A stretch of DNA of 12,431 bases from the IMG/VR virus record IMGVR_UViG_3300045988_132172, positions 1-12,431 of that record; one strand, written 5' to 3'. The translations under genes and the position numbers were made by a program. This document shows positions 1-12,431 of this stretch, in pieces (position 1 is the first letter of the stretch; every line of letters starts with the position of its first letter). The notes under the pieces are model-generated. The model was given only the letters and a program-made list of their open reading frames with translations, had not been told where the DNA came from and made no database searches. Source of the stretch: a virus.

Positions 1-176
1 GGCAAGACCAACCTGTGAACAAATTGTTAACATTTCCCCAATCTGTTCATATTTCGTTCATAATTGCAAAACTGGCATGAATCTTGCTAGGCAACTATAA
101 CATTAAATTGTCTGACAATATCATACAAAGTCTGTCACTTATTCTGTTGACGTTTTAGCTCATTTGAACTATAATA
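1..176. repeat. Left inverted terminal repeat (ITR-L) of a linear genome
   Basis: Bases 1-176 are the reverse complement of 12256-12431 except at one position (C132 faces A12300). Complementarity stops after 176/12256. ITRs at the exact window ends, together with a protein-primed PolB gene, indicate genome termini. Confidence 0.95.
147..175 (+). promoter_or_regulatory. ITR-embedded SigA/sigma-70-type promoter, left copy (points inward, antisense to all genes)
   Basis: TTGACG (147-152), 17-nt spacer, TATAAT (170-175) on the plus strand. It is sequence-identical to the right-end copy. No plus-strand gene follows it, so the sequence match is strong but function at this end is uncertain. Confidence 0.4.
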
Positions 177-177
177 A

Positions 178-199
178 TAGCCCAGCAAACGCTGGGCTA
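178..199 (-). terminator. Intrinsic-terminator-like hairpin after the last gene (possibly bidirectional)
   Basis: Perfect 9-bp stem TAGCCCAGC/GCTGGGCTA with a 4-nt loop, 8 nt beyond the TAA stop (208-210) of the appendage gene. On the minus strand it is followed by UUAUUAUAGUU; on the plus strand by CCUCUUAUUU. Confidence 0.6.
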
Positions 200-207
200 C
201 CTCTTAT

Positions 208-1464
208 TTACATCGTAATTGAACCCCTGTGAATCTGTACCTGTGTGACCTCTGTCAAAGTCCGGTAGTAGTGCTTGTCATCAGAAATATCATACAAGCT
301 TAAATAAATATTCCGACCTCGGAAATTAAGCTGTGCGGGGATATGATAAAAGTCACTTCCAGACTTAATAATCACGGTCGTTGGATAGCATGTATATCCA
401 TTGTGATCTCCAATAAAAGAAGTTGAAAAAATACGCCCCAAACGGTATTCAGTTCCATCACAGGTAAGTGTTCCGCTGTTTGGTAAACAAACATAGTTAC
501 CCCAGATCAGAGTACTTGTATTCTCATTGTACGAACTAACAATTGCCCAACTTGATCCAAAAGTAGGTGAAAAGTCACCATTTTCAAAGTTTGCAGTAAC
601 TTCATAAAATGACGGGCTGCAAGCCCCTGTTTCAACAGCAGTAGCAAGATAGCTTGCAAGTCTCTCCTGTCCTGTTATGTTTGGATGGAAGCCATCAGAA
701 CCCAGAAAGCCATCAGCATGGAGAATATAGTCTGACCCTGTCAAATACCGCCAATTCTTTCTCTGGGTGTTATAAACGGATTTTGCAATCTTGAGCCTAT
801 TCTGTACATTTGGGTCATCTGTCCGATCTACTGACCATGCTACCATAGCGGAAAATACTTTTGCATTCGGAAATCTTGCGTCCGCAGCACCCATAAAAGC
901 GTTGATTCCAGTTTCAATGTCTGAATAGCTTCCGAACTCATTAAATCCCCCTACTACAAGAATCTGTTTGACATCCGCAGAAGCTGGCACAGCATTTAGC
1001 AACATAAGAAATGAATTAGCAGCTGTTGAGAAAGATGCACCCCCATTTGCGGAAATGGTTACGTCTTCAAGCCCTGTGTACTTGATAAAGTTAGTAGTCC
1101 AGGGGGTTATCTTACCCTCCGGAGTATAACCAACAGTGTAGCTGTCTCCGATTATGATAGTTTTCCCGGAATGGTCAAAAAGTCCTTCTTTTTTCTGTAA
1201 CTTTGTGATTTCAGCTGTATTTGTTCCTACTTGCTCTTTTAATGGCTCAATCTGTTCGTTGATTACTTTTGTAGTAGCTTCATTTACTACTTTTCCGATC
1301 TCTCCATCATCCAGACTTTTCTGGATGGCATCATCAATCATAGTCTGAGCGGTGTCTTTTATATGTGTCCATTCCTCATGATCTTTGTCTGCCTGTTTGC
1401 CAACTTTAAGCAACCAGTCTAAATTCATGTCCTGCATAGAACTATGTGGGTATCTGAAAACCAT
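208..1464 (-). CDS. Tail appendage / receptor-binding protein with an SGNH (GDSL) esterase domain
   Basis: 418-aa ORF with RBS TAAGGAGGAATAAATT before ATG 1464. The central domain has all four SGNH blocks: IIIGDSYT (I), ANGGASF (II), VGGFNEF (III) and SDGFHPN (V, DxxH). The N-terminus (YPHSSMQDMNLDWLL, then a charged heptad-rich stretch to about residue 95) looks like a virion anchor plus coiled-coil stalk. The last ~140 aa are beta-rich and may be a receptor-binding domain. It is the last gene, directly after the collar genes, in the position of phi29 gene 12. Confidence 0.75.
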   Translation of the reverse strand: MVFRYPHSSMQDMNLDWLLKVGKQADKDHEEWTHIKDTAQTMIDDAIQKSLDDGEIGKVVNEATTKVINEQIEPLKEQVGTNTAEITKLQKKEGLFDHSGKTIIIGDSYTVGYTPEGKITPWTTNFIKYTGLEDVTISANGGASFSTAANSFLMLLNAVPASADVKQILVVGGFNEFGSYSDIETGINAFMGAADARFPNAKVFSAMVAWSVDRTDDPNVQNRLKIAKSVYNTQRKNWRYLTGSDYILHADGFLGSDGFHPNITGQERLASYLATAVETGACSPSFYEVTANFENGDFSPTFGSSWAIVSSYNENTSTLIWGNYVCLPNSGTLTCDGTEYRLGRIFSTSFIGDHNGYTCYPTTVIIKSGSDFYHIPAQLNFRGRNIYLSLYDISDDKHYYRTLTEVTQVQIHRGSITM

Positions 1465-1477
1465 AATTTATTCCTCC

Positions 1478-2167
1478 TTAATAAGTTAATAAAAGCAGAT
1501 CCTGTGCAAAAAGACCTGTGCAATAGTCAATAAAGCTTTGTTTTCTCAACTCAAGCTCTGACTGAATCATCTGCTGAGAGGTAGTAACTCCAATATTGCC
1601 ATGAATACGCCCGGAGTGCTTATTCTGTCCGGTCTCCCGGCTTGTCTCACCCTTGCCATATTCAAATGTGTTTTTGTTTTCTCCGGAGCTTTGCACTGTT
1701 GTGCTACCACTGTACTCTGTAGTTGTTTTTTCGTTTGGGCTGTAGCTTGCATCATTAAAAGCACTGACTTCATTGGTAGCTGTATCTGCCCCAGAGTTTG
1801 TCGTAGTGGTTCCCTGCCCTGCTTCTGCCTTGTTTACATCCTGCCCGGAGCTTTGACTTGTTCGTGTCAGATCGGGGCTATCTGTCCATTCTTCATGACG
1901 GTCATAGTTTTCAATCGGTTCATAATTCGTTAATTCTAATACATTATAAACTTTTTCAATGCTACTTTTCCATTTCCTGCTCCATGCAGGAATAGCATTT
2001 TCATGCATAAAATCCCAGTCCGGATAAAGTGGTTCACAGTCCCCATAAGACAGAAGCAGACTATCGATAAAGTTCTGTTTGTCTGCTGATTCTGGGAATT
2101 CCATTTTATCAAATAAAATGTCATTCCATTCATAAAGCCCTGCTATCGTAACCTTATAAAGTGCCAT
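1478..2167 (-). CDS. Putative lower collar / tail tube protein (phi29 gp11 position)
   Basis: 229-aa ORF with RBS GGGGGTGAAAAGTT before ATG 2167, overlapping the connector gene by 14 nt. It lies directly downstream of the connector gene, as gene 11 does in phi29. It has an S/T/G/N-rich central segment and a C-terminal HGNIGVTTSQQM motif that I recall from collar proteins of small Gram-positive podophages. The call is mainly positional. Confidence 0.55.
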   Translation of the reverse strand: MALYKVTIAGLYEWNDILFDKMEFPESADKQNFIDSLLLSYGDCEPLYPDWDFMHENAIPAWSRKWKSSIEKVYNVLELTNYEPIENYDRHEEWTDSPDLTRTSQSSGQDVNKAEAGQGTTTTNSGADTATNEVSAFNDASYSPNEKTTTEYSGSTTVQSSGENKNTFEYGKGETSRETGQNKHSGRIHGNIGVTTSQQMIQSELELRKQSFIDYCTGLFAQDLLLLTY

Positions 2168-3074
2168 AACTTTTCACCCCCGCAGTTTCATAGTTTCTGA
2201 TCTTGACTGACAAATTCATTTCCGGATAAAGTCTATTTGTCATGTCAACCCCTGCTTGCATGGTTTCAAGCCATGTCGTAAGCCGTGTCACGGATTCTGC
2301 ATCATTTTTGCTTGTTTCAAGCACATTCAGACGTTCTTTTTTATCGGAACCAACAGACGGAATCCCTACTTCCGTGTCAAACTGATCCAGAAGTTTCTCA
2401 AACACCTCAATCAGCTCCGGTGCTATAAAGTTTTGCTTAAGATCCTTATTAAAACTTTCCCAGGCCTCCTGCTTGCTTCCCTGTCTGTCTTCTGTTTTTA
2501 TTGATACATCAAAAGCCTCAACTGGGTTACCAGCCTGTATGCTGTCATAGATTTTTTTCAATGTCTGAGCTGCTGCTTTGTTTTTGGCAGCTATCAGAAA
2601 TGCAAGTTTTGAGTTAAACACATTCATGTCAAAAGCAGATGCTACAAGTGCCAGTTTGTAGCTATAAAAGCCAATTATATCTCCAATACCGCAGAAAGTT
2701 GGTCTGAGATAGATGACAGAACAGTCTTTCCCAATTTCCATATCTTCTATTTCAATTGTAGCATTGCTTGCATACGTGTGTATGCTTGCTGTCGTTGGCT
2801 TAAAGTAAATATTGTACCCTGTCAGCATAGGGTATTGAGCAATTAACCCATAAAGATCTGTCTTTGTGATGCAAATATACCCCCCAAAAAGCAGGCAATA
2901 TTTGAAATAGTCAATATCAATACTTCCATTGTATGTGATGTCAAGAATAGAACAGACCCTCTCGTAAAGCATCCGATCAAATGTATCAGTATATAAGCTG
3001 TTGACTTTGATTCCGGATGGTTGGAAATAATTTGTGCAGATGTTGATCTTGTCAAAATTAACCGGTGTCCACAT
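2154..3074 (-). CDS. Head-tail connector (portal), phi29 gp10-like
   Basis: 306 aa (phi29 gp10 is about 309 aa) with RBS AAAAGGAGGAAAGAAAAAC before ATG 3074. By-eye similarity to remembered gp10 includes KKERLNVLETSKNDAES versus KKERMVTDEVSSNDEQIES, and NRLYPEMNLSVKIR versus NELYGLNVKVKFR. The helical middle region is comparable (AAKNKAAAQTLKKIYDSIQAGNPV versus [34 protein letters not shown]). Confidence 0.8.
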   Translation of the reverse strand: MWTPVNFDKINICTNYFQPSGIKVNSLYTDTFDRMLYERVCSILDITYNGSIDIDYFKYCLLFGGYICITKTDLYGLIAQYPMLTGYNIYFKPTTASIHTYASNATIEIEDMEIGKDCSVIYLRPTFCGIGDIIGFYSYKLALVASAFDMNVFNSKLAFLIAAKNKAAAQTLKKIYDSIQAGNPVEAFDVSIKTEDRQGSKQEAWESFNKDLKQNFIAPELIEVFEKLLDQFDTEVGIPSVGSDKKERLNVLETSKNDAESVTRLTTWLETMQAGVDMTNRLYPEMNLSVKIRNYETAGVKSYGTL

Positions 3075-3091
3075 GTTTTTCTTTCCTCCTT

Positions 3092-4435
3092 TTATTCAAA
3101 ATAAAATCCATTATTTAGGTAGCTGTTCACCTGTTCTTGATCTCCCTCGAATCCTGCAATCTGGATAGATGCATTCCGGCATTTTACAAAACCACTCAGT
3201 GCAGAAATACTGCGGACAGTACCATCTATATAACCCTCACTTGTGCCATCTGGATCTATGCTTGTGCAAGCATAGCAGATACTGTTTGCATCCATGTTGT
3301 TGAGTATCGAGGAAATATTGCCAACCGTACCTACCATGTTGGGCTCTGGGGCTGTAACACTTTGAAATGCATCTACAATGCTTGTGCTTGCCTTAATTGG
3401 ATTCATTGTGACAGCACTTGTGGCTGTATCTAACAAGCTTGTCGTAAGCTGGCCAATGTTTGTTGTGGCATATCCAATCTGTACCGGAACAGCAAGCTGA
3501 CATTGGAAGTGTGCATATTCATCAGATCCGGAAGTGAGCCAAACATCAGCCATGCCTGATACAGCATCAAAGTTATAAGTAGCTTTTAACTGCCCTTTAT
3601 GTGTCTTTGTTGGATTGATAGGGATAACACCCACAAATGGTAATTTGACAGTATACTTTGAAAAACTAGCATTGTAATAGCGGAAATCTGTATCAGCATA
3701 TAAGGGGTTACCAAGGCTTAAATCATAAGAAAAAGTGCATGTTGCATCATTAATTAATGCAGCAGTTACATTGCTGTCCCAGTAGCCAAGTTTGATAGTA
3801 TCGGTGATATTCAAGAATGAGCTTAACCGGAATGGCAGCCATTTTAAGTCTACGATATACTGAAATGGATTGAAAAGCAACCGTGTAAGTGCTGAGTCAA
3901 TCACGTCTGGAATTGATCCATACGTGTACATGAATTTCATCAGATCATCTAATTGGCTTCCTCTGACATAATAAGTGCTTATCCCCTCTACTGAAATAGT
4001 CCGTAGCAGATAGTTTCTAGCATACCCATTCACAAACGTGTTTATCGGCAGTCCAACTATCGTAGACTGGCTTACCCAGTCATTTGTAGGAATGTACATA
4101 CTGTCATTGGCAAGCGTAGTCTGCTTAGCAGACCGATCAATGAAGCATGTATAGTTGCTGATCTCTGTCCGATAGGTAGCTAACACATCCTCACTCGCTG
4201 ATATCTCAACCATTTCATTATTTAAAGACAATGTTGAATTGATAAAATAGTAATGGTCAGCCCATTTCAGATAGTTGAATTGCAATGCAATATCCAATGA
4301 CAATTTTAATTTAAACACTGGATTCTGAAACGTGGTGTTTGATTTTAAAAGACAGGGGGCAACTGTCCCCTGTCCTGTCGGTCTTTTTGTACTGTTTTTT
4401 CGTTTGGAAAAATGGAATAAGATAATCTCTGTCAT
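3092..4435 (-). CDS. Tail knob / distal tail protein, phi29 gp9-like
   Basis: The ORF track gives 3092..4477 starting at TTG. I prefer ATG 4435 (MTEIILFHFSKRKNST..., 447 aa), which forms an ATGA overlap with the endolysin stop and matches where gp9-like N-termini begin. The N-terminal region (NYLKWADHYYFINS...EDVLATY) and the C-terminal end (GFVKCRNASIQIAGFEGDQEQVNSYLNNGFYFE) resemble remembered phi29 gp9 segments. It sits directly upstream of the connector gene, as in phi29. Confidence 0.65.
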   Translation of the reverse strand: MTEIILFHFSKRKNSTKRPTGQGTVAPCLLKSNTTFQNPVFKLKLSLDIALQFNYLKWADHYYFINSTLSLNNEMVEISASEDVLATYRTEISNYTCFIDRSAKQTTLANDSMYIPTNDWVSQSTIVGLPINTFVNGYARNYLLRTISVEGISTYYVRGSQLDDLMKFMYTYGSIPDVIDSALTRLLFNPFQYIVDLKWLPFRLSSFLNITDTIKLGYWDSNVTAALINDATCTFSYDLSLGNPLYADTDFRYYNASFSKYTVKLPFVGVIPINPTKTHKGQLKATYNFDAVSGMADVWLTSGSDEYAHFQCQLAVPVQIGYATTNIGQLTTSLLDTATSAVTMNPIKASTSIVDAFQSVTAPEPNMVGTVGNISSILNNMDANSICYACTSIDPDGTSEGYIDGTVRSISALSGFVKCRNASIQIAGFEGDQEQVNSYLNNGFYFE

Positions 4436-5082
4436 GATAGATAAATATCTCCCTTTGCCGTGATTGCACATATCCAACCGGATGGAATCCTAACCCACGT
4501 TGCACCAACCTCATCCTTTTTGACATCTTTTACCGTGACTGTGGTTCCTTTTTTCAAGCATCCATCTGAATAAGCATGTTTCATGCCATCCATTGTCAGT
4601 TGTGCATACTTTTTGATCTGACCCCATACACTATAGCGTACATGTAAGTGATCTACGACAGTGGTATAAGTATGACCTATTTCATAAGATGGAGTTTTTC
4701 CCTCCCATACCCTGCGTATGCAATATAAGTCGGACCTACGACTTACAAGGCTTTTGACTACGCCAACCCCAGGATTGTATGGGGTGTTTTTTCTACCGCC
4801 TCTACTCTCAATCATATAGCCGTTACCAATAAAAATGGCACAATGTGTCACAGGAGATCCAAAGAACAGGAAATCACCGGGTCTCTCCTGACCAATGGGG
4901 ATCATTTCACCCATGTTTGCATAAGTTGCTGCATTATATCGCCCAACGTCTGAACCTGCTGTCCTCTGGACACAGTAAAGCAGTCCGGAACAGTCAAGTC
5001 CTTGTGCAGGTGTTGAACCACCCCACACATAAGGAGTACCAATTAAATTATGAGCATATACTAGAATTTGATTTGATGTCAT
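4432..5082 (-). CDS. Endolysin: NlpC/P60 cysteine peptidase plus C-terminal SH3b-like wall-binding domain
   Basis: 216 aa. NlpC/P60 signatures are YVWGG...GLDCSGL (catalytic Cys) and THCAIFIGNGYMIES (His). The C-terminal ~70 aa (HLHVRYS...GTTVTVKDV...WVRIPSGWI) follow an SH3b-like pattern. It lies immediately downstream of the holin gene. Confidence 0.85.
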   Translation of the reverse strand: MTSNQILVYAHNLIGTPYVWGGSTPAQGLDCSGLLYCVQRTAGSDVGRYNAATYANMGEMIPIGQERPGDFLFFGSPVTHCAIFIGNGYMIESRGGRKNTPYNPGVGVVKSLVSRRSDLYCIRRVWEGKTPSYEIGHTYTTVVDHLHVRYSVWGQIKKYAQLTMDGMKHAYSDGCLKKGTTVTVKDVKKDEVGATWVRIPSGWICAITAKGDIYLS

Positions 5083-5089
5083 TTTACAC

Positions 5090-5314
5090 CTACTTTCCTA
5101 ATTGCTCAATTAATATGTTCATCTTTTCCAAAGCAAGCGTGTTATTTTTTATCACTTCGGAGAGTGTATCAACTTCGCTTTTATGATCCTCATTAAGCTT
5201 GTCAACTCTTGCGTTCGTCTGATCGTACATGTATTTTACAAAGTAGGCCATCATGCAACAGCAGACGATCGGAAACGCATAATTTCCGAGAATAGTTAAG
5301 AATGTATCCATCAT
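5090..5314 (-). CDS. Holin, BhlA/UviB-like (single N-terminal TM helix plus coiled-coil tail)
   Basis: 74 aa with RBS GGGAGGTTACATAACA before ATG 5314. A hydrophobic N-terminus (FLTILGNYAFPIVCCCMMAYFV) is followed by a charged helical tail (DKLNEDHKSEVDTLSEVIKNNTLALEKMNILIEQL), which is the BhlA/UviB architecture. It sits directly upstream of the endolysin. Confidence 0.7.
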   Translation of the reverse strand: MMDTFLTILGNYAFPIVCCCMMAYFVKYMYDQTNARVDKLNEDHKSEVDTLSEVIKNNTLALEKMNILIEQLGK

Positions 5315-5316
5315 TG

Positions 5317-5628
5317 TTATGTAACCTCCCTTTTTTCAAAGTAATTCACATTTACAAAAGTGCTTGTTTCTATCATAACCCTACCTGTGCTATTACCAAT
5401 CACAGAAATAAAGAAACATGATGGGGCTGGAAATCCGTACGGCGTTTCCGGAAAAGTAAAATCAACAAGCTCCGTTTTTGCCAATAAAACAGGACTATTA
5501 TCAGTTAACATTAACCCAGTAGCAGAGTCGGGATCCCCATTATTTAAAATCACAATCCTTTTTATGCCTACTGTATCATCCAACGGAAGCAGAGTAGGCG
5601 TATCGACTGTTACGTCAAAATAAATCAT
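5317..5628 (-). CDS. Hypothetical beta-rich protein (positional analogue of phi29 gene 8.5; function unknown)
   Basis: 103 aa. The ATG overlaps the capsid gene stop by 1 nt (TAATG). No motif recognised. It is coding-like and tightly coupled to the major capsid gene. Confidence 0.6.
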   Translation of the reverse strand: MIYFDVTVDTPTLLPLDDTVGIKRIVILNNGDPDSATGLMLTDNSPVLLAKTELVDFTFPETPYGFPAPSCFFISVIGNSTGRVMIETSTFVNVNYFEKREVT

Positions 5629-6824
5629 TATACTCCCTCCCCCAATACATACAGAATCGCATTGTGTGTGAAGTTATTCCAAGCGTTGAAACGGTAATGG
5701 TCAAAGATGTTGTAATATCCACCTGCTGCATTGAATGGCGTAGCTGCCGAGTACATCCATTGGTTATTCACTCCCATTGCTCTACGATCATATAAAAGAC
5801 CAAGTACATAAGGAAGACTTACCGCTGTCGTGTCTGTTTTTGAAACCCCATCAGCATCAATGATGTTTGGCTTAATATTGATCGCTGGGCTATCGAACTC
5901 CTGCCAGCCGTTTACCAACTCTTTGTCAGCGATTTTAAGCTGCTCATCAGAAAAGACAGTCGGGAATACCTGTGTTTCAGAATCAATCCAGAAATCAGTG
6001 TACATAAGCAGTTTCTGATTCTCCGGTCTAGAGAATCTCAAGATCTCTTTCCCAGTCAGATTCATGTGATATTTTGTTGTGCGGTCCTGCATTTTTTTCG
6101 AATCTTTCTTGATTCTGGCAACCACAAAAGCCATGAAGTCTCTGTGATGCTCCGGGCTTAAAAGCTGCTTTCTTGTCAGCTCTGTACCATATGCTGTATT
6201 GTACTCCTTTACCAGATCCACCTCATTTGTGCCAAGTGATGAGATACCAGCCATAAAGTTAAGCACCGTCATTCTGCGTTTTGCTTCATTTCTGGATTCA
6301 ATATCGTTGTAGTAAGCAGTCATATAGCTACTTACAAACATGAGAAACTCTGCTTCGTTGGAGAAAGCAAGTGCCAGCTGATCACGGAAACGTGTGACAT
6401 GAGATTGTAACACCTTGCTTCCGTAGAATTTCAACTCTACTACTTTCGGGGCATTGATCTTATACATATCGACAGATTGACCATCAGCAAGCTGGTTTTC
6501 ATTCAAATCTGTATTCCAATCCTGGGATGCTTCTGCATCTAATGGAAGTGAAATAATCTCACGTGTGATGGCCCCCCATCGCTCATTATTCTCAATGATG
6601 GATCGGAACACTCCGGATCTGTATTTTTCCATTTCAAAATAAGTACGTCCACACCACTGACTGAGTGCTTTCAAGGTAGACTCTACACCCGTCCGAAGCA
6701 TTGTCTCTCCGACAGCCACAAAAGAACTTGTATCTACTGCTTTGATGTTCTCCCTTCCGGTAGCCATCTTGTACAGGTCATTAATGATTAAATAGGCATC
6801 CTGTACGACTAAACTATTTGCCAT
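5628..6824 (-). CDS. Major capsid protein, phi29 gp8-like (HK97 fold), without a C-terminal Ig-like domain
   Basis: 398 aa with RBS TAAGGGGGGTAATAGAAA before ATG 6824. By-eye matches to remembered gp8 include FLMFVSSYMTAYYNDIE versus FESFVSSIINAIYNSAE, and the C-terminal GGYYNIFDHYRFNAWNNFTHNAILY versus [25 protein letters not shown]. The protein ends where the gp8 BIG2 domain would begin. Confidence 0.8.
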   Translation of the reverse strand: MANSLVVQDAYLIINDLYKMATGRENIKAVDTSSFVAVGETMLRTGVESTLKALSQWCGRTYFEMEKYRSGVFRSIIENNERWGAITREIISLPLDAEASQDWNTDLNENQLADGQSVDMYKINAPKVVELKFYGSKVLQSHVTRFRDQLALAFSNEAEFLMFVSSYMTAYYNDIESRNEAKRRMTVLNFMAGISSLGTNEVDLVKEYNTAYGTELTRKQLLSPEHHRDFMAFVVARIKKDSKKMQDRTTKYHMNLTGKEILRFSRPENQKLLMYTDFWIDSETQVFPTVFSDEQLKIADKELVNGWQEFDSPAINIKPNIIDADGVSKTDTTAVSLPYVLGLLYDRRAMGVNNQWMYSAATPFNAAGGYYNIFDHYRFNAWNNFTHNAILYVLGEGV

Positions 6825-6839
6825 TTTCTATTACCCCCC

Positions 6840-7175
6840 TTAATTCATGAGTTTCATGAGATCGTCTGCTACGTTCTCAGAAGTTCGCGGTGCTGATCCA
6901 CTTTTTCCAGATGCTGACAGGTTACCAGCTTGTAACGTAGCGGTCAAAGTATTGATTGCTGTCAGCAGAGCCGCATTGGTTGCATCCTGTCCTGTCTGTG
7001 CTGTCAGATTCAGTGGAGTATTTGCAACCTGCTGACCCAGATTCTGAATCTGTTCTGTACCATGTGGGCTTGTGATCTGATTAAGCCCAGTCATGTTCTG
7101 AGCGTTCAGAATTCCAATGATCTCATTTTTTGAAAATCCAAGTTTACCAAGTTCTAAAATCTGATCTACTTTCAT
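6840..7175 (-). CDS. Putative scaffolding protein (phi29 gp7 position)
   Basis: 111 aa with RBS AAAAGGAGATAAAA before ATG 7175. It is Q/N/T/A-rich, probably helical or disordered, with a charged C-terminal end (ENVADDLMKLMN). It lies immediately upstream of the capsid gene. The call is positional only. Confidence 0.45.
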   Translation of the reverse strand: MKVDQILELGKLGFSKNEIIGILNAQNMTGLNQITSPHGTEQIQNLGQQVANTPLNLTAQTGQDATNAALLTAINTLTATLQAGNLSASGKSGSAPRTSENVADDLMKLMN

Positions 7176-7198
7176 TTTTATCTCCTTTTCTGCCGGAA

Positions 7199-7284
7199 TT
7201 GAAAAAATTAAAATAGGTCAACGCTTCCGGGTTATCATCCCATGGCATCCGCTTCCGGCGGTAGATGTAGCCGCGTTGACCTAT
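7199..7284 (-). terminator. Branched 72-nt hairpin plus U-tract: intrinsic terminator of the early unit and/or a small structured RNA
   Basis: A perfect 12-bp closing stem joins ATAGGTCAACGC (7213-7224) to GCGTTGACCTAT (7273-7284) and encloses 48 nt. The enclosed region can form two small hairpins on the minus-strand RNA (CCGC-CGGAA-GCGG and GGG-AUGAUAA-CCC). On the minus strand the structure is followed by UUUAAUUUUUUCAA (7212-7199). It lies in the only large intergenic gap, between the ATPase and scaffold genes. Confidence 0.55.
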
Positions 7285-7288
7285 CTCT

Positions 7289-7317
7289 AATATAATTTTT
7301 TTAAAACAGTTTGTCAA
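7289..7317 (-). promoter_or_regulatory. Candidate late/structural-module promoter inside the 3' end of the ATPase gene
   Basis: On the minus strand: TTGACA (7317-7312), 17-nt spacer, TATATT (7294-7289). The predicted start at about 7281-7284 coincides with the first bases of the 12-bp stem. Confidence 0.5.
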
Positions 7318-8347
7318 TATAGAATTTTACAGAAATGTTCTGATAGCTGATTCTATTTGTCAGACGATAGCTGTCAATCCAGCTATAAAAGCATCTAAAC
7401 TGATCTTTTCCATGCTGACTGTCTTCAAAAACGTCTTTACAAGTGCCAGAAATATGATCCGACACATACAAGTGTGCTTTTGATTTGTGCTCATAAATCG
7501 CAACTTTTCCAATCACACAAATTAGCTTGTATTGCCGGATGTCCTCTGATCTGACATCCGAGACATCATCATATGCAAATTCATTCGATAATGCCATCTT
7601 TGCAAAATCCGTGTCACCAGACAAAGCACGATACAATGCAGTATCTTTTTTCTTTTCTGAAATCGGGGAATCGTTAATCAAAACCAAGATGATTCCTCTC
7701 TCTTTTAGCATGGAAAATTCCTGCTTGTTCTTTTTCATTCGTTCAAAGATTGGCAGCAATCCAAAAGCTTGCACAATTGCATTATCTAATGTGTTTGAGT
7801 TGGAAGCAAGCCACCAGCGGAATGGCTTCTTTCCTTGCAATTCTCTGTTTGCTGATATGGTCTCAACAGCATTTAAAAAAGCATCATCCTCCCCACTGAT
7901 TGACTTAGCGATCTTCTCCGGGATGAACTCATCATAAATCCCCTCAGAGAAATCAGATCCAGAGAAACCACGATTATTATGCATTGAAGTAAGGGAAAAA
8001 GCTTCACCCCTATAAACTTGTTCATCTTCTGTTTGCTCCATGATCTTGATACGCCCATATTCACCTCTGGGCTTTTCAAAATGAAAAAACCTGTTCATAT
8101 GTTTATTGATATCAAGCCACGGATCAAACTCAGGAAGAAATACTTTTGTCAGTTGCTCTTTTGTACGCCTCATATAGATGATCTTCTCATTTTTGGGAAA
8201 AACATCATTGATGAAGTGCTGGAAAATGCCATACGTTTTTCCAGTTCTTCTGGCTCCAATAATGAATATGAAGTTAATTTTATTTTTATCAGCAAGCTGG
8301 ACGATCCTTGGAACGTCCAGCCAACCATTTTTATCGTAGATATTCAT
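7301..8347 (-). CDS. DNA packaging (encapsidation) ATPase, phi29 gp16-like
   Basis: 348 aa (gp16 is about 332 aa). Walker A is IIGARRTGKTY (gp16 VIGARGIGKSY) and Walker B is GIYDEFIPEK (gp16 IVFDEFIREK). IIYMRRT resembles FIYVRR and WWLASNSN resembles CICLSNA. The start ATG directly abuts the SpoVG-like stop (TAAATG). Confidence 0.9.
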   Translation of the reverse strand: MNIYDKNGWLDVPRIVQLADKNKINFIFIIGARRTGKTYGIFQHFINDVFPKNEKIIYMRRTKEQLTKVFLPEFDPWLDINKHMNRFFHFEKPRGEYGRIKIMEQTEDEQVYRGEAFSLTSMHNNRGFSGSDFSEGIYDEFIPEKIAKSISGEDDAFLNAVETISANRELQGKKPFRWWLASNSNTLDNAIVQAFGLLPIFERMKKNKQEFSMLKERGIILVLINDSPISEKKKDTALYRALSGDTDFAKMALSNEFAYDDVSDVRSEDIRQYKLICVIGKVAIYEHKSKAHLYVSDHISGTCKDVFEDSQHGKDQFRCFYSWIDSYRLTNRISYQNISVKFYIDKLF

Positions 8348-8647
8348 TTAGGAAAACCCACCCCCGGATGCTACCGGCTGCGAATTCTTATTGCACTCAT
8401 TGTATTTTTTAATACATGCATTCTCCAATAGCTTTGTCCATTCTTTGTCCAGGCTATATACAGTATTGTGATAATCATCATCACTTCCTTTTTTACTTGG
8501 AAATGACAGAAAAAGACTATCTCCCCATTCTATCAATGTAAGTCCTTTAATTACAAGGGTGTCGTCAAGTTCCAGATCAATAAAAGCTTTTGTTCTTGAC
8601 TTTCCATTATAAGGTTTGCAAGTAATTTTTACGTTTGATTTTAACAT
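8348..8647 (-). CDS. SpoVG-family nucleic-acid-binding protein
   Basis: 99 aa with RBS AGGAGATAAACTAAT before ATG 8647. It follows the SpoVG pattern throughout. KAFIDLELDDTLVIKGLTLIEWGDSLFLSFPSKKGSDDDYHNTVYSL aligns by eye with B. subtilis SpoVG [47 protein letters not shown]. Confidence 0.7.
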   Translation of the reverse strand: MLKSNVKITCKPYNGKSRTKAFIDLELDDTLVIKGLTLIEWGDSLFLSFPSKKGSDDDYHNTVYSLDKEWTKLLENACIKKYNECNKNSQPVASGGGFS

Positions 8648-8662
8648 ATTAGTTTATCTCCT

Positions 8663-8776
8663 TTAATCATCTAACAAAAACCATAATTGACAGCTTGCAA
8701 ACATGCAAGCAAAAGTAACACAAGTCCAGAAAAGAGTTTCAATATCTTCTTTATTTTCTTTCCAGAATTTTTTCAT
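8663..8776 (-). CDS. 37-aa putative membrane micro-protein (not in the supplied ORF track)
   Basis: Hand translation gives MKKFWKENKEDIETLFWTCVTFACMFASCQLWFLLDD, a charged N-terminus followed by about 20 hydrophobic residues. It is preceded by GGAGGTGAAAACC-ATG. The same GGAGGTGAAAAC 12-mer precedes the first early gene at 12207. It fills most of the gap between the polymerase and SpoVG-like genes. Confidence 0.45.
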   Translation of the reverse strand: MKKFWKENKEDIETLFWTCVTFACMFASCQLWFLLDD

Positions 8777-8845
8777 GGTTTTCACCTCCTGTCTATATTA
8801 TTGTAACTTGTTTATATTACAAAACTATTACAGATTTATAATATT

Positions 8846-10969
8846 TTATCCGTATACGGTATCTTCCATTTCAAATGGCAACGGCAATCCTGTTTCCTTG
8901 TCATATGGAATCGTGTGATCTAACTCATATTCTGTTTCTGTCAATCGGATGGCACAACCATATTCAATCCTGCATCCATCAATGGTCAGATCGTGAACCC
9001 CATCATGAAAAATATATTCTGTTTTCATTTTCCACCTGGGATCTTGCCAATCATTCGCCCTGCGGTAGTTCCTGCGATACGTCAAATCATTTTTGAAAAT
9101 AAACCCTTTTCTAAAATTGCTTATATCATCATTAAGGCAATATATCCCCTCTTTTGGCACTCCTGCGACTGTCAGATGCAAAGACTCATCTTTTTTCAAG
9201 CGGTAACAATAACGCTTACTACCCATCGTGATGAACTCACTGTATATCCCATCAAACTCAGCAATTCCAAGCCGAAATGTTTTTTCCTTATACTCTACTA
9301 CACCAATTTTTCTTTTTTCTGACATTTCAATTACAGACTGATTAAACTCATTCAGTTTATCATGATCCCAGTCTGTACCTTTTACAGAATCTGTGTCTGA
9401 GTATAGCCACACCCGGCAGCAGGAACCCAGCCGGAAAAGATAAGCCTGTGCATACGCTGTAATAAATACCCCCCACTGGTAGGGCATAAAACTGTTCTTA
9501 TTCCGATAGAACTTTTCAAGCTCTTTTTCCCTGTCCTCTGGTTCTTTTGCCTCCCACTCTCCGAACTCCATAAGCTCTGTACATAAGATCTGGATGATTC
9601 GCTGTACTGTCATGCCATACATTCCATTAAGCTCCCCTTTTGAGATCATGTAATTTTCTTCGTCCAAATCTTTAAGCGTACATTTTTTAAAAAACAATTC
9701 CATCAAATAGTCGGTAAACCACTTCGGCAAGTAATCTTTTGTAGCTCTCATGACCTTTGACACATCAGCCCAATCGTAATCATAACTTGAAAGGATGACT
9801 TCTAAATCTGGATCCGTAAAAGGATAGATGACAAGATCAGCGTTGACGATCTTTCCATTATCCAAGTTGTCATGGAACTGTTCTTTTTTACTTTTTGCCT
9901 CAGGAAAAACACAAACTTTTGCTTTTGAAAAAGCCAGCGGGGGCATGGGGCACTCTTTTTTCAGTCTCAGATTCTTAAGTCTTATATAGCCGGAAAAAGC
10001 ATAATCTTCTTTCAGTTCCATAATGTCTTTTAATGTTATATTATCAGTATAACAAAAATTCGACATTGGAAATTTACAATAGCACATCCAAGCAATGTAT
10101 GAGCTTGCAAAATCATAGCACTCAACAGGTTCTTTTATCAGCTGATTGACATAATACCTGTTTGCATGGGTATAGCCCCCATGATAGCAATCAACCATTT
10201 GATCGTATTGCTCCAACGTCAGGGCCATTTGTTCAAATTGCTTGCGCCATTTCTTGTCTTTTCTTGCCCTCCTGCGTGCGTTCGTCCGGATAAAGCCTGT
10301 ATTGGTCAACGGACAGTTCGCCACATTAAATCCTCTCTGATCTATGTATTTGCGTAATGCCTTACACAAACTGATCGTATCTGTACAGACATAGGCAATT
10401 TCTTTTGCTGTACGTTGACTTGCTGGCGTTCGGAATTTCTTATAGTCCCATGTTCCGACAGCTTTTTCAGTCGTTCCCATGTCTTTGCATAGTTTCTCAA
10501 GTGATCTTTGTGTTAAGATAAGACTATCCCTGAACTCAATCCCTTGTCCTGTCCATTTCATAAAAATGTATTTATGAGTTTTACTAGCAAGAGATTTATC
10601 CGGTATCCCCCATTTTTGGAAAAAATGGTTACGAAGAAAAACATAGTCATATGGAAAGTTATGCACATAAAAGCGTACAAGGTGACTATTGTCAGCATGT
10701 AAAGTTGTACAGATCCTGTCTATTGTTTCAATCAGATCAGAAACATGATTGCCATAAATACAGCAATCATCCTCTATCGTGATTGTCCAATCCGTGACAA
10801 AGCCAATGTTTTTGTTAAGATAGACAAAAGTCTCCGTATCAACAGTTATAATTTTTTCATAAACTCCTAAATAATGCCCTGCGTTGGATCTCCGGATAAA
10901 ATCACCGTTAAACAGTCGCATATAATCATAGTTCTTAAAATAAATAACTGGATATCCTGCGACTACCAT
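8846..10969 (-). CDS. Protein-primed family-B DNA polymerase (phi29 gp2-like)
   Basis: 707 aa with RBS AGGGGGTAAAGT before ATG 10969. Motifs in canonical order: ExoI VDTETF, ExoII HNFPYDYVF, ExoIII YVCTDTISL, YxGG YHGGYT, motif A YDFASSY, motif B KGELNGMYG, motif C YSDTDS and KxY GSKRY. The long spacing between motifs A and B, and between B and C, is compatible with TPR1/TPR2 insertions. Confidence 0.95.
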   Translation of the reverse strand: MVVAGYPVIYFKNYDYMRLFNGDFIRRSNAGHYLGVYEKIITVDTETFVYLNKNIGFVTDWTITIEDDCCIYGNHVSDLIETIDRICTTLHADNSHLVRFYVHNFPYDYVFLRNHFFQKWGIPDKSLASKTHKYIFMKWTGQGIEFRDSLILTQRSLEKLCKDMGTTEKAVGTWDYKKFRTPASQRTAKEIAYVCTDTISLCKALRKYIDQRGFNVANCPLTNTGFIRTNARRRARKDKKWRKQFEQMALTLEQYDQMVDCYHGGYTHANRYYVNQLIKEPVECYDFASSYIAWMCYCKFPMSNFCYTDNITLKDIMELKEDYAFSGYIRLKNLRLKKECPMPPLAFSKAKVCVFPEAKSKKEQFHDNLDNGKIVNADLVIYPFTDPDLEVILSSYDYDWADVSKVMRATKDYLPKWFTDYLMELFFKKCTLKDLDEENYMISKGELNGMYGMTVQRIIQILCTELMEFGEWEAKEPEDREKELEKFYRNKNSFMPYQWGVFITAYAQAYLFRLGSCCRVWLYSDTDSVKGTDWDHDKLNEFNQSVIEMSEKRKIGVVEYKEKTFRLGIAEFDGIYSEFITMGSKRYCYRLKKDESLHLTVAGVPKEGIYCLNDDISNFRKGFIFKNDLTYRRNYRRANDWQDPRWKMKTEYIFHDGVHDLTIDGCRIEYGCAIRLTETEYELDHTIPYDKETGLPLPFEMEDTVYG

Positions 10970-10982
10970 ACTTTACCCCCTG

Positions 10983-11603
10983 CTATGGTCTATACTTCAA
11001 AGCTTCTGCTTCACTAGCAAAGCCCAGCTGTTTTGCTATTGTGTCGGCTGCATCTGGATCAGTTCTCTCACGGAATTTTTCCAAGTCTTTTATAATCTCA
11101 GAAACCGTAGAATCATCCAGTTTATGACTGATGATTCTCATTGTCTGTTTGCTGTCATAGAATCGCTGCATCCACTTCCATACTTCAGACTTGAAAAATA
11201 ACTTCATTTCCTCTTTAGATTTAAAGTTGATTCCGTATTCTGTACTTAGGGTTTTTTGACGTTGATCTATGATCTCACGCCAGCCCTGCACAGTGCTGCT
11301 CTTTTCTTTCAAAATTTTTTGAATTGCTTTCACTTGAGTTCGTGGCAGAGCCTTGTATTTTTCATTATCCAGATTTTCCGGAATAGTTGACCTACCCGGG
11401 AAAAATCTTGCAAGCAGATCCTGATAGTCTGCATAAGCTCCTCCAACTTCTGAATCAAAGCCTTTTGCCTTTAATCTACGCATACGCTGATTCAGACGTT
11501 TTGCAAGCTGTCTGCGGAGCTGTAAAGCTTCCATAGTAGTAAGCATGTTCGGGTTGACGTTCAAACCCTTTGACGTGGTTGGGATTTTAGGATTCTTTGG
11601 CAT
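10983..11603 (-). CDS. Candidate terminal protein (positional; no recognisable motif)
   Basis: 206 aa, immediately upstream of the PolB gene, which is the canonical TP-pol arrangement in phi29, Cp-1 and PRD1. The N-terminal third is strongly basic (LQLRRQLAKRLNQRMRRLKAKG). It overlaps the preceding ORF by 17 nt. Confidence 0.4.
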   Translation of the reverse strand: MPKNPKIPTTSKGLNVNPNMLTTMEALQLRRQLAKRLNQRMRRLKAKGFDSEVGGAYADYQDLLARFFPGRSTIPENLDNEKYKALPRTQVKAIQKILKEKSSTVQGWREIIDQRQKTLSTEYGINFKSKEEMKLFFKSEVWKWMQRFYDSKQTMRIISHKLDDSTVSEIIKDLEKFRERTDPDAADTIAKQLGFASEAEALKYRP

Positions 11604-11961
11604 TATATATCACACCCTTCATATACTCATAAATGCTATCGTATTCCCTAGTTGTTATGCGAAAATCTAATTCTGGTATTTTAATGATCAAATAAAGATT
11701 CTCACATATAACTCTTGCGTCGTTAATAGTATCATGAACATAAAATGAGGCAATAAAATGATATGATTTAACATTTATTAGAGACTTTGAACGATTGTAC
11801 ATTGTTTTTCGTGCAACTCTCCTTATGACGATTATTACTTCTGGATAGTTTAATTCTATCATGTCTGACCTGTCAAGATCTGGGTTTGATTTCATAAGAG
11901 TCACTACCGGGGCTTTTACCCCGGTATTGGTATATTTGAGTTTTTTGTATTTTGATTTCAT
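11587..11961 (-). CDS. Hypothetical early protein (124 aa)
   Basis: Coding-like ORF whose ATG directly abuts the upstream stop (TAAATG). The N-terminus is basic (MKSKYKKLKYTNTG). No motif recognised. Confidence 0.6.
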   Translation of the reverse strand: MKSKYKKLKYTNTGVKAPVVTLMKSNPDLDRSDMIELNYPEVIIVIRRVARKTMYNRSKSLINVKSYHFIASFYVHDTINDARVICENLYLIIKIPELDFRITTREYDSIYEYMKGVIYNAKES

Positions 11962-12207
11962 TTAGTCTACCTTCTGTTCATCCTCTTTTAATCTCATAAT
12001 CTCTTTAAATAACTCAATAGCTTCTTTATCAGTTGTCGCATTAATAATCTCAACTTCATCAGTTCCCTCATATGCATCAGCAAAGTATCTTGCTCCATTA
12101 TACTCCTTATAAAGAGTATACATATAACCCCAACTTGTTTCAATAGTCATAAGTTCTTTGCCAACATATACTCTGTATCTTCCATATAAAATTTTTCCAT
12201 GCTTCAT
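11962..12207 (-). CDS. Hypothetical early protein (81 aa), first gene of the array
   Basis: The ORF track starts at TTG 12252. I place the start at ATG 12207 (MKHGKILYG...) because it is preceded by AAGGAGGGAGGTGAAAAC. The TTG also lies at or upstream of the transcription start predicted from the ITR promoter. The protein has an acidic C-terminal tail (LKEDEQKVD). Confidence 0.65.
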   Translation of the reverse strand: MKHGKILYGRYRVYVGKELMTIETSWGYMYTLYKEYNGARYFADAYEGTDEVEIINATTDKEAIELFKEIMRLKEDEQKVD

Positions 12208-12255
12208 GTTTTCACCTCCCTCCTTTATGACCTTGCTGTATTTATTTGACAAGTC

Positions 12256-12431
12256 TATTATAGTTCAAATGAGCTAAAACGTCAACAGAATAAGTGACAA
12301 ACTTTGTATGATATTGTCAGACAATTTAATGTTATAGTTGCCTAGCAAGATTCATGCCAGTTTTGCAATTATGAACGAAATATGAACAGATTGGGGAAAT
12401 GTTAACAATTTGTTCACAGGTTGGTCTTGCC
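12256..12431. repeat. Right inverted terminal repeat (ITR-R)
   Basis: Reverse complement of 1-176 with one mismatch (A12300 versus C132). Confidence 0.95.
12257..12285 (-). promoter_or_regulatory. ITR-embedded early promoter, right copy (drives the minus-strand gene array)
   Basis: On the minus strand: TTGACG (12285-12280), 17-nt spacer, TATAAT (12262-12257). The predicted start near 12250 gives a leader of about 43 nt ending in a strong RBS before ATG 12207. Confidence 0.65.

Follow-up and report, generated by a model that had tools for sequence, protein, structure and literature searches.

A small phi29-like phage genome with a conserved structured RNA between its packaging ATPase and scaffold-like genes

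The DNA analysed here (the window) comprises positions 1 to 12,431 of IMG/VR virus record IMGVR_UViG_3300045988_132172, a stretch of 12,431 nucleotides. Very probably it represents a lytic phi29-like podophage of the human gut, whose genome it covers except for 6 nt at each end; this phage belongs to an abundant, undescribed lineage. Our main subject is a structured RNA of 72 nt located between the genes for a gp16-type DNA packaging ATPase and a scaffold-like protein. The element is deeply conserved with strong covariation, matches no Rfam family and has a fold resembling that of the packaging RNA (pRNA) of phi29.

Position, fold and conservation of the RNA

The RNA is read from the minus strand, as are all genes of the window. 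The elements of the locus are as follows:

7289..7317, minus strand: promoter-like sequence TTGACA-17-TATATT overlapping the end of the ATPase gene; kept in all close relatives
7213..7284, minus strand: three-way-junction RNA, 72 nt, between the ATPase stop codon (7301) and the scaffold-like gene (7175)
7284-7273/7224-7213: helix P1 of the RNA
7272-7270/7246-7244: helix P2, with the 5′ bulge at 7269-7262
7261-7258/7252-7249: hairpin P3, with the loop CGGAA at 7257-7253
7242-7239/7231-7228: hairpin P4, with its loop at 7238-7232
7212-7202, minus strand: U-rich tract after the RNA element

The predicted fold is a three-way junction (-36.3 kcal/mol, z = -3.4) in which the GC-rich stem of P3 is capped by a purine-rich pentaloop that hardly varies. 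In the window's own clade, represented by 22 distinct sequences, 98.3% of cells pair, compared with about 35% when the partners are slid; compensatory changes occur at three pairs, and RNAalifold recovered the same structure independently. A covariance model built from this clade located the element at the same place in a clade of 60% identity (E ~1e-17) and, with filters off, in six more clades whose ATPases are only 29-42% identical. Among these distant matches alone, 96.2% of cells pair versus about 40% with slid partners, and all 22 pairs are compensatory, a result reached by 0 of 500 shuffles; fitting the alignment to the model biases it towards the structure, and of its eight rows one is a partial, doubtful match.

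Minimum free energy folding produced the same topology in 13 of 16 clade representatives. A CNGAA-loop hairpin with a stem of at least 4 bp was present within 200 nt of the ATPase stop codon at 143 of 144 related loci, as opposed to 1.5% of random 200-nt windows, and the late promoter-like site had a comparable counterpart at 138 of the 144. A descriptor scan returned exactly one match per genome in the window, in Amedibacillus phage AD70P3 and in the relative L059. The CNGAA-type element was not detected in asccphi28, Cp-1, P68, HM2, astrithr, K58 g2 or phi29; a relaxed descriptor allowing any pentaloop was unspecific, so that for asccphi28, Cp-1, P68 and HM2 only the CNGAA-loop form can be called absent. 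Rfam searches of the whole window (E up to 1) and of the RNA region (E up to 10) yielded no credible family, whether pRNA, hammerhead or riboswitch. The element thus occurs in many clades of small phi29-like gut phages, among them the cultivable Amedibacillus phages.

The gene that follows the RNA varies by clade and may be scaffold-like, holin-like or a lysin gene; what stays constant is the promoter and the element at the start of the late operon. A tie between the RNA and the ATPase gene is ruled out by L064, in which the ATPase gene lies on the other strand, 8 kb away, and the element stands behind a promoter heading a block of holin-like, scaffold, capsid and knob genes. A U-tract follows the closing helix in many clades and is missing in several; where it is present, the whole fold looks like a terminator. 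A 57-residue open reading frame at 7144-7317 was dropped as a gene: it begins with TTG, shows poor conservation, overlaps the RNA element and is missing from the gene calls of an independent ENA contig of the same variant.

Four further observations concern the surroundings of the element. In L031, a 29-nt tandem duplication in the region homologous to window 7290-7330 doubles the TTGACA box of the late promoter. In L067 (MT836587.1), a tRNA-Gln gene with anticodon TTG (8489-8564, minus strand) comes right after the RNA, which is unusual for a phi29-like genome of 13.7 kb. In the window, the box UUCCGGC (7190-7196, minus strand), just 5′ of the ribosome-binding site (RBS) of the scaffold-like gene, shows complementarity to the GCCGGAA of the P3 hairpin loop; the window clade keeps the box unchanged and the L059 clade does not, and it may reflect an alternative pairing or chance. 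Finally, genomes L072-L105 (the MT835901 clade) carry a second long hairpin region 60-110 nt past the RNA element and before the first late gene. This region is highly variable: genomes with 98% identity elsewhere differ in it, and no fewer than three unrelated forms occur.

The genome, its ends and its genes

The remaining features of the window are given below; Pfam matches were judged against curated cut-offs.

1..176: left inverted terminal repeat, incomplete, as the real repeat has 6 more nt (AAACTT) on its outer side
147..175, plus strand: promoter copy in the left repeat, pointing inward; it leads directly to the hairpin at 178-199 and lies antisense to the final gene
176..201: GC-rich hairpin (AGCCCAGC-loop-GCTGGGCT), terminator-like on either strand; the main operon is predicted to end here
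208..1464, minus strand: candidate appendage or receptor-binding protein, 418 residues, last gene, with an SGNH/GDSL esterase-like domain; PHROG 31573
1478..2167, minus strand: candidate lower collar (gp11 position), 229 residues; by gene order and homology to the AD70P3 gene at the same position
2154..3074, minus strand: upper collar or connector, gp10 counterpart, 306 residues; Pfam Phage_connector 50.9 bits (cut-off 25.6), PHROG 2038 E 8e-23
3092..4435, minus strand: predicted tail knob, phi29 gp9 counterpart by fold, 447 residues; start codon and lysin stop codon overlap in the sequence ATGA
4432..5082, minus strand: endolysin, NlpC/P60 domain at residues 15-94; Pfam NLPC_P60 61.6 bits (cut-off 23)
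5090..5314, minus strand: holin-like protein, 74 residues; PHROG 4898 'holin' E 1.8e-4 and hydropathy
5317..5628, minus strand: 103-residue protein between the capsid and holin genes; variable cassette, in 14/60 relatives
5628..6824, minus strand: phi29-type major capsid protein, 398 residues; Pfam Phi29_MCP 58.5 bits (cut-off 27)
6840..7175, minus strand: scaffold-like protein, 111 residues; by its position before the capsid gene and its low-complexity, helical character
7301..8347, minus strand: gp16-type DNA packaging ATPase, 348 residues; Pfam Podovirus_Gp16 56.6 bits (cut-off 25), PHROG 2150 E 3e-26
8348..8647, minus strand: SpoVG-family protein, 99 residues; Pfam SpoVG 54.8 bits (cut-off 29.6)
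8663..8776, minus strand: 37-residue protein with one hydrophobic segment; kept in 52 relatives
8846..10969, minus strand: family B DNA polymerase of the protein-primed type, 707 residues; Pfam DNA_pol_B_2 39.7 bits (cut-off 25.8), PHROG 1907 E 2e-50
10983..11603, minus strand: candidate terminal protein, 206 residues; by its position directly upstream of the polymerase gene and predicted all-helical character only
11587..11961, minus strand: 124-residue early protein
11962..12207, minus strand: first gene, 81 residues from the ATG after AAGGAGGGAGG; variable, in 21/60 relatives
12257..12285, minus strand: promoter-like TTGACG-17-TATAAT at the inner edge of the right repeat, 11/12 consensus matches; the main operon is predicted to start here
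12256..12431: right inverted terminal repeat, differing from the left copy at one position

The 16 plausible genes cover 94.3% of the window, which has 39.2% G+C. Independent gene calling on another contig of the variant, a MEGAHIT assembly from ENA of 12,424 bp and multiplicity 208 (~208x), produced the same list; since that contig has an identical layout, the window represents a real variant. No tRNA genes were found in the window, and the small proteins matched no Pfam family at E up to 10.

The terminal repeats form arms of 176 nt (1-176 and 12256-12431) with a single mismatch, at window 132 versus 12300. Among the IMG/VR relatives, 25 contig ends all stop at 5′-AAACTTGGCAAG. The window begins at GGCAAG, and the relatives' end, 5′-AAACTT GGCAAG..., lies 6 nt beyond its edge. 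Nine contigs of relatives show the AAACTT end on both sides, and the more distant L059 clade likewise starts with AAAC. At the 3′ end of contig L014, an Illumina adapter tail (CTTCCGATCT) is joined straight to the terminal AAA, which marks a physical DNA end. Adapter trimming in the public assembly of L014 was incomplete. The 25 ends and the adapter together argue for a linear molecule with a defined end, from which the window is short by 6 nt per side; the sequences put the real repeat at about 182 nt and the full genome at about 12,443 bp. The terminal 5′-AAA matches that of phi29 (AAAGTA; PMC11476376) and fits initiation on a 3′-TTT template followed by sliding back, a step that would be shared with phi29. 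Long repeats are normal in the group, as those of Cp-1 and asccphi28 measure 236 and 577 nt and have promoters annotated inside them.

The replication genes include a polymerase that aligned with phi29 gp2 in BLASTP over 500 residues at 23% identity (E 2e-9). The Exo II/III motifs and motifs A, B and C are aligned, with the pairings HNFPYD/HNLKFD, YVCTD/YIKND, DFASSY/DVNSLY, KGELNGMYG/KLMLNSLYG and YSDTDS/YCDTDS, and extra segments occur at the sites of phi29 TPR1 and TPR2. By sequence, the enzyme is of the protein-primed family B type; phmmer gave no match to it in PDB. The 206-residue gene adjoins the polymerase gene upstream, an order also found in phi29, Cp-1, asccphi28 and AD70P3. Between the polymerase and ATPase genes lies SpoVG, a member of a family of nucleic-acid-binding regulators in Bacillota, which is kept in the window and L059 clades and absent from AD70P3 and the Amedibacillus phages. 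A 2024 review of phi29-like phages makes no mention of SpoVG (PMC11476376).

The ATPase, connector and capsid genes all exceed their Pfam cut-offs, and PHROGs concur on the connector, the terminase, the polymerase and the major head protein. The gp9 counterpart is weak by sequence (PHROG 'tail protein' E 3.7e-4); phmmer found no match in PDB, and hhalign against phi29 gp9 with shallow profiles was not significant. Its AlphaFold model, made with 15 homologues, is confident for residues 1-100 and 410-447 only. In Foldseek, the nine best PDB matches of this model were all tail knobs (phi29 gp9 5fb5 at E 1e-7, C1 gp12, Andhra); TM-scores were low (0.31), as the confident residues make up just part of the model. 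The modelled fold thus points to a gp9-type tail knob. The earlier note, made from the letters alone, had named counterparts of gp2, gp16, gp8, gp9 and gp10 and had made its phi29-type classification depend on the structural proteins; the Pfam matches and, for gp9, the fold bear this out, as the gene calls do for its sixteen tightly packed minus-strand genes. Its holin, endolysin and appendage fared unequally. The NlpC/P60 lysin is firm, and no SH3 match was found in its C-terminal half (Pfam, E up to 10); the note's SH3b domain and BhlA holin had no Pfam match at that threshold. The holin-like protein, with one N-terminal hydrophobic segment and a charged C-terminal half, is a weak assignment, as is the appendage, in which Pfam Lipase_GDSL_2 scored 29.8 bits, under its cut-off of 32.9. 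Relative to the L059 clade, the N-terminal 26 residues of the appendage candidate are conserved and the remainder has diverged.

The left end differs between the window and its lineage. In about 45 relatives, the left-repeat promoter is followed by a group of one to three small genes on the plus strand, convergent with the main operon (in window orientation, the left ends of L004-L057; for example L015 242-517 and L026 245-709). They comprise a conserved 91-residue family ('MKYNQYYNKEVMNLKQL...') and optional proteins of 62 ('MKSVKEVTNEEMNDIALYMNDD...') and 58 residues ('MSEARLYELAHEALL...'), and are absent from the window and L051. The lack of these genes gives the window its one-directional array and makes it the shortest genome of the set, complete relatives measuring 12,877-13,556 bp. 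The single gene direction and low size are thus features of the window variant; as a trait of the lineage, the strictly one-directional array of the earlier note does not hold. The left-end accessory genes appear dispensable, which helps to define the lineage's minimal gene set; by their distribution among relatives, the 103-residue gene and the first gene behave as exchangeable cassettes. The promoter-like site of the right repeat, which faces the whole gene row and whose function we infer, is kept at the same place in relatives.

The following scheme would account for this layout. The linear DNA, with repeats of ~182 nt ending in 5′-AAA, would be replicated from both ends by the family B polymerase, primed by a terminal protein, and the 3′-TTT template end would allow the sliding-back step known from phi29. 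The promoter at the inner edge of the right repeat would read the whole gene row, in the early order of two small genes, the candidate terminal protein, polymerase, the 37-residue membrane protein, SpoVG and the packaging ATPase. The second conserved promoter and the structured RNA would head a late block of scaffold, capsid, holin, lysin, knob, connector, lower collar and appendage genes, and the hairpin beside the left repeat would end the operon. In relatives, the left-repeat promoter would drive the small accessory genes, which the window variant may have lost.

With a gene set complete for replication, virion and lysis, linear double-stranded DNA with inverted terminal repeats and defined ends, a protein-primed-type polymerase, the gp16, gp10 and phi29-type capsid families and a predicted gp9-type knob, the window fits in these features the broad group of phi29-like protein-primed podophages, which takes in Salasmaviridae, Guelinviridae, Rountreeviridae, Madridviridae and unclassified relatives. 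Several points count against the reading of it as such a genome or against parts of the scheme. Protein priming is deduced from the polymerase type, the repeats and the gene order, and no terminal protein was recognised by similarity: the 206-residue candidate has no significant similarity to phi29 gp3 by sequence or by hhalign with shallow profiles, and gave only chance-level phmmer matches in PDB. Its single-sequence AlphaFold model (pLDDT 45) was too poor for a fold search, and a homologue search listed only matches of at least 86% identity. Promoters and terminators were called as consensus matches only. The lower collar, scaffold and appendage remain candidates, assigned mainly by gene order. 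The 111-residue scaffold-like protein has no family match (Pfam up to E 10, PHROG); the 229-residue protein has a 10-residue motif resembling gp11 in hhalign that is not significant, and no Pfam, PHROG or PDB match. A search for the host through the lysin returned, as its sole genome match, the phage itself in an Odoribacter metagenome-assembled genome (MAG). This is L153 (CABPYD010000046.1, 12,636 bp), a whole lineage genome binned in an 'uncultured Odoribacter sp.' MAG of UHGG, most likely by mis-binning and not as evidence of the host. A Bacillota host, as the earlier note had proposed, is plausible because of the GGAGG RBSs, the TTGACA/TATAAT promoters, the NlpC/P60 lysin, SpoVG and the nearest isolates, which come from Amedibacillus and Clostridium; BhlA and SH3b, which the note had also cited, are not supported.

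The window could instead be a fragment of a larger element, a circle opened by the assembler or a fold-back artefact. Perfect end repeats can be produced by assemblers, those of the relatives (224-700 nt) are often 100% identical, and asccphi28 was deposited as 'circular'. However, one base distinguishes the window's two arms, 25 contig ends in independent assemblies fall on the same nucleotide, one of them with an adapter attached, lineage contigs cluster at 12.4-13.8 kb with none longer, and nothing is lacking from the set of replication, virion and lysis genes. We consider an incomplete genome highly improbable. Of the earlier claim of a complete genome with repeats at the exact ends, the 176-nt repeats and essential completeness stand, and the ends shift outward by 6 nt.

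Roles considered for the RNA

The Rfam consensus of phi29 pRNA (RF00044) begins with an outer helix (A), followed by an inner helix (C) that carries a 9-nt bulge, the CE or right-hand loop, on its 5′ strand alone and encloses a short hairpin (E). After a 3-nt junction comes a second hairpin (D) with the left-hand loop, and the outer helix then closes. The RNA element has its parts in this order, in shorter form, and its bulge of 8-10 nt is likewise confined to the 5′ side. In pRNA, the bulge pairs with the loop of the second hairpin of a neighbouring molecule (PMC5066667). In every clade of the element, the bulge is complementary to the loop of the second hairpin, with sequences that differ: CAUC/GAUG in the window, and elsewhere ACCA/UGGU, AUCC/GGAU, AAAAGGAA/UUCCUUUU, AAGCAAAG/CUUUGCUU, AAAACUGA/UCAGUUUU, UGACU/AGUCA and GUCG/CGAC. 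One clade holds two versions (AAGAUAAG/CUUAUCUU and AAGACAAG/CUUGUCUU), and a compensatory change from GAUAAG/CUUAUC to GACAAG/CUUGUC occurred inside a single clade. The complementary runs measure 3-8 nt across 16 clades, with a cognate sum of 86 against 51.7 +/- 4.1 after permutation (0/20000 permutations reached it). When the L063 super-clade, with its 8-nt matches, was left out, the cognate sum was 38 against 29.3 +/- 2.6, a value reached by 11 of 20000. Bulge and loop thus covary as they do in pRNA, in a pairing that sequence alone assigns neither to one molecule nor to two.

One reading of these data is that the element is a miniature pRNA, a short transcript from its own promoter that would form a ring on the connector through bulge-loop pairing between copies and dock the gp16-type ATPase. 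The topology of the RF00044 consensus, the complementarity kept in every clade through changing sequences and the compensatory change within a clade are what such an RNA would show; the element has a promoter of its own, with a U-tract right after the closing helix in many clades, and the genome encodes both the gp16-type ATPase and the gp10-type connector. However, the RF00044 covariance model, which scores 145 bits on phi29, found no match in the window (E up to 1) or in 7150-7340 (E up to 10). The element spans ~72 nt compared with 118 model positions, its helices are much shorter, and it carries a conserved CGGAA loop. It lies at the head of the late operon, whereas phi29 pRNA lies at the genome end, and in L064 it keeps to the late-operon head away from the ATPase gene. 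In the several clades without a U-tract, the RNA would stay in the mRNA unless processed, and the pairing could just as well be intramolecular, as a pseudoknot. In the literature, pRNA is confined to phi29-like phages of Bacillus (PMC5066667; PMC11476376). asccphi28 is reported to show no evidence of a pRNA and to have an ATPase that forms rings on its own (PMC7823558), and no element of the present kind was found in asccphi28, Cp-1, P68, HM2, astrithr or K58 g2. We regard a miniature pRNA as possible, and hold to it with some doubt.

Alternatively, the element may act in cis as a leader of the late operon, either as a terminator switch in which a phage protein bound to the CGGAA hairpin permits read-through, or in translational control, with the bulge and loop pairing as an intramolecular pseudoknot. 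The logic of a read-through switch would be comparable to that of lambda N and boxB. In every clade, a promoter immediately precedes the element, which opens the late block irrespective of which late gene comes first, and this holds in L064 even though the ATPase gene is elsewhere and on the other strand. In many clades, the closing helix and U-tract resemble an intrinsic terminator, and the GC-rich stem of P3 with its near-invariant purine-rich pentaloop has the appearance expected of a protein-binding site. Some of the evidence does not fit as readily. No candidate binding protein is common to all clades, SpoVG being missing in AD70P3; the U-tract is missing in some clades; and the exact match to pRNA topology would have to be a coincidence. 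Because the junction nucleotides are not conserved, a leader in the form of a small-ligand riboswitch is unlikely. Tentatively, we give a cis-acting leader close to an even chance. The constant position of the element at the late-operon head, including that in L064, and the terminator-like fold make the leader at least as likely as a pRNA, and what probability these two readings leave belongs to other roles.

The RNA is the main point of this analysis. According to reviews, no phi29-like phages other than those of Bacillus have pRNA, the origin of which is under debate. If the element were a miniature pRNA, it would be the first outside Bacillus phages, and RNA-dependent packaging would be widespread and ancestral in the group instead of a peculiarity of phi29.

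Comparison with known phi29-like phages

The closest deposited sequence is GenBank MT836115.1 ('UNVERIFIED: Bacteriophage sp. clone scaffold_1437', human faeces, Mexico), which is 87% identical over 97% of the window. It shares gene order, repeats and the RNA element with the window, as do the IMG/VR lineage contigs, at capsid identities of 90-98%. This sequence (L001 in our set) is unannotated, truncated inside both repeats (30 and 53 nt missing) and has a different first gene; it also carries ~330 extra bp at the left end (146-478) and a 227-bp polymerase/SpoVG insertion (8961-9188). IMG/VR holds 57 contigs at 90-98% capsid identity and three at 60%, and most of these relatives have the 1-3 plus-strand left-end genes without counterpart in the window. 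For each of the polymerase, capsid, ATPase, terminal-protein candidate and appendage, the cluster at 90% identity has 1023-1592 members, which come from contigs of ~12-13.7 kb; one member has a GenBank accession from a 'Caudoviricetes sp.' MAG. The lineage is therefore abundant and often sequenced, and not new as sequence, though it is neither described nor classified. The distinct new lineage of the earlier note cannot be upheld in the face of MT836115.1, the 57 contigs and more than 1000 near-identical proteins, and its view of the 176-nt repeat as unusual does not hold beside Cp-1 and asccphi28.

Nor is the size exceptional. Small isolated phi29-like phages with the same core proteins include AD70P2/P3 (12.2-12.3 kb) and Salmonella phages astrithr, Astrid and assan (11.6-11.7 kb), and Pectobacterium DU_PP_III, Acinetobacter Phanie and Vibrio K58 g2 (10.4 kb) fall in the same size class. 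The statement that among tailed phages only Mycoplasma P1 is comparable is out of date, with isolates of 10.4-12.3 kb at hand. A 2024 review counts more than 2000 phi29-like entries, many of them 11-14 kb long, and includes numerous human-metagenome genomes of 12-14 kb (PMC11476376). In itself, the genome adds little to what is known of small phi29-like phages of 10-14 kb, which have already been isolated and reviewed and are abundant in gut metagenomes. What the public assemblies add is that the physical ends (5′-AAACTT...) can be read from them, which supports a linear molecule with phi29-like termini and indicates that the window and its GenBank relative are both slightly truncated.

phi29 itself (Salasmaviridae) shares with the window the polymerase, ATPase, capsid, connector and knob families and a terminal-protein gene upstream of the polymerase gene. 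It differs in its 19.3-kb genome, 6-nt repeats and divergent early and late operons, and its p4/p6 regulators, head fibre and left-end 174-nt pRNA (PMC11476376) were not found in the window. Members of the astrithr group (astrithr, Astrithrvirus, 11.6 kb; DU_PP_III; Phanie; K58 g2) share the phi29-type polymerase, ATPase, connector and capsid with the window, and their layout combines one long gene row with a small inward-reading block at the far end. They differ in their Gram-negative hosts, in protein identities of 22-30% and in having no RNA element that could be found. Their gene order is also unlike that of the window, with the ATPase gene straight after the polymerase gene and the connector gene before the capsid gene.

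Among the nearest isolates are Amedibacillus phages AD70P2/P3, obtained from sewage and placed in Guelinviridae in the GenBank taxonomy line; Amedibacillus phages cluster apart from clostridial Guelinviridae (PMC11476376). They resemble the window in size, in near-identical gene order and in having most genes on one strand. AD70P3 has homologues of the polymerase (32% identity), ATPase (33%) and capsid (29%), as well as the connector, knob, 229-residue protein and holin. It differs in its very low sequence identity, the absence of SpoVG and of an NlpC/P60 lysin match, and three small genes on the other strand at the polymerase end; the G+C content of the Amedibacillus phage is 26.7% (PMC11476376) compared with 39.2% in the window. 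Like the window, AD70P2/P3 have an RNA with the element's topology, which follows the ATPase gene and is preceded by a promoter. Since these phages can be cultivated, the question of whether pRNA exists outside Bacillus phages is directly testable.

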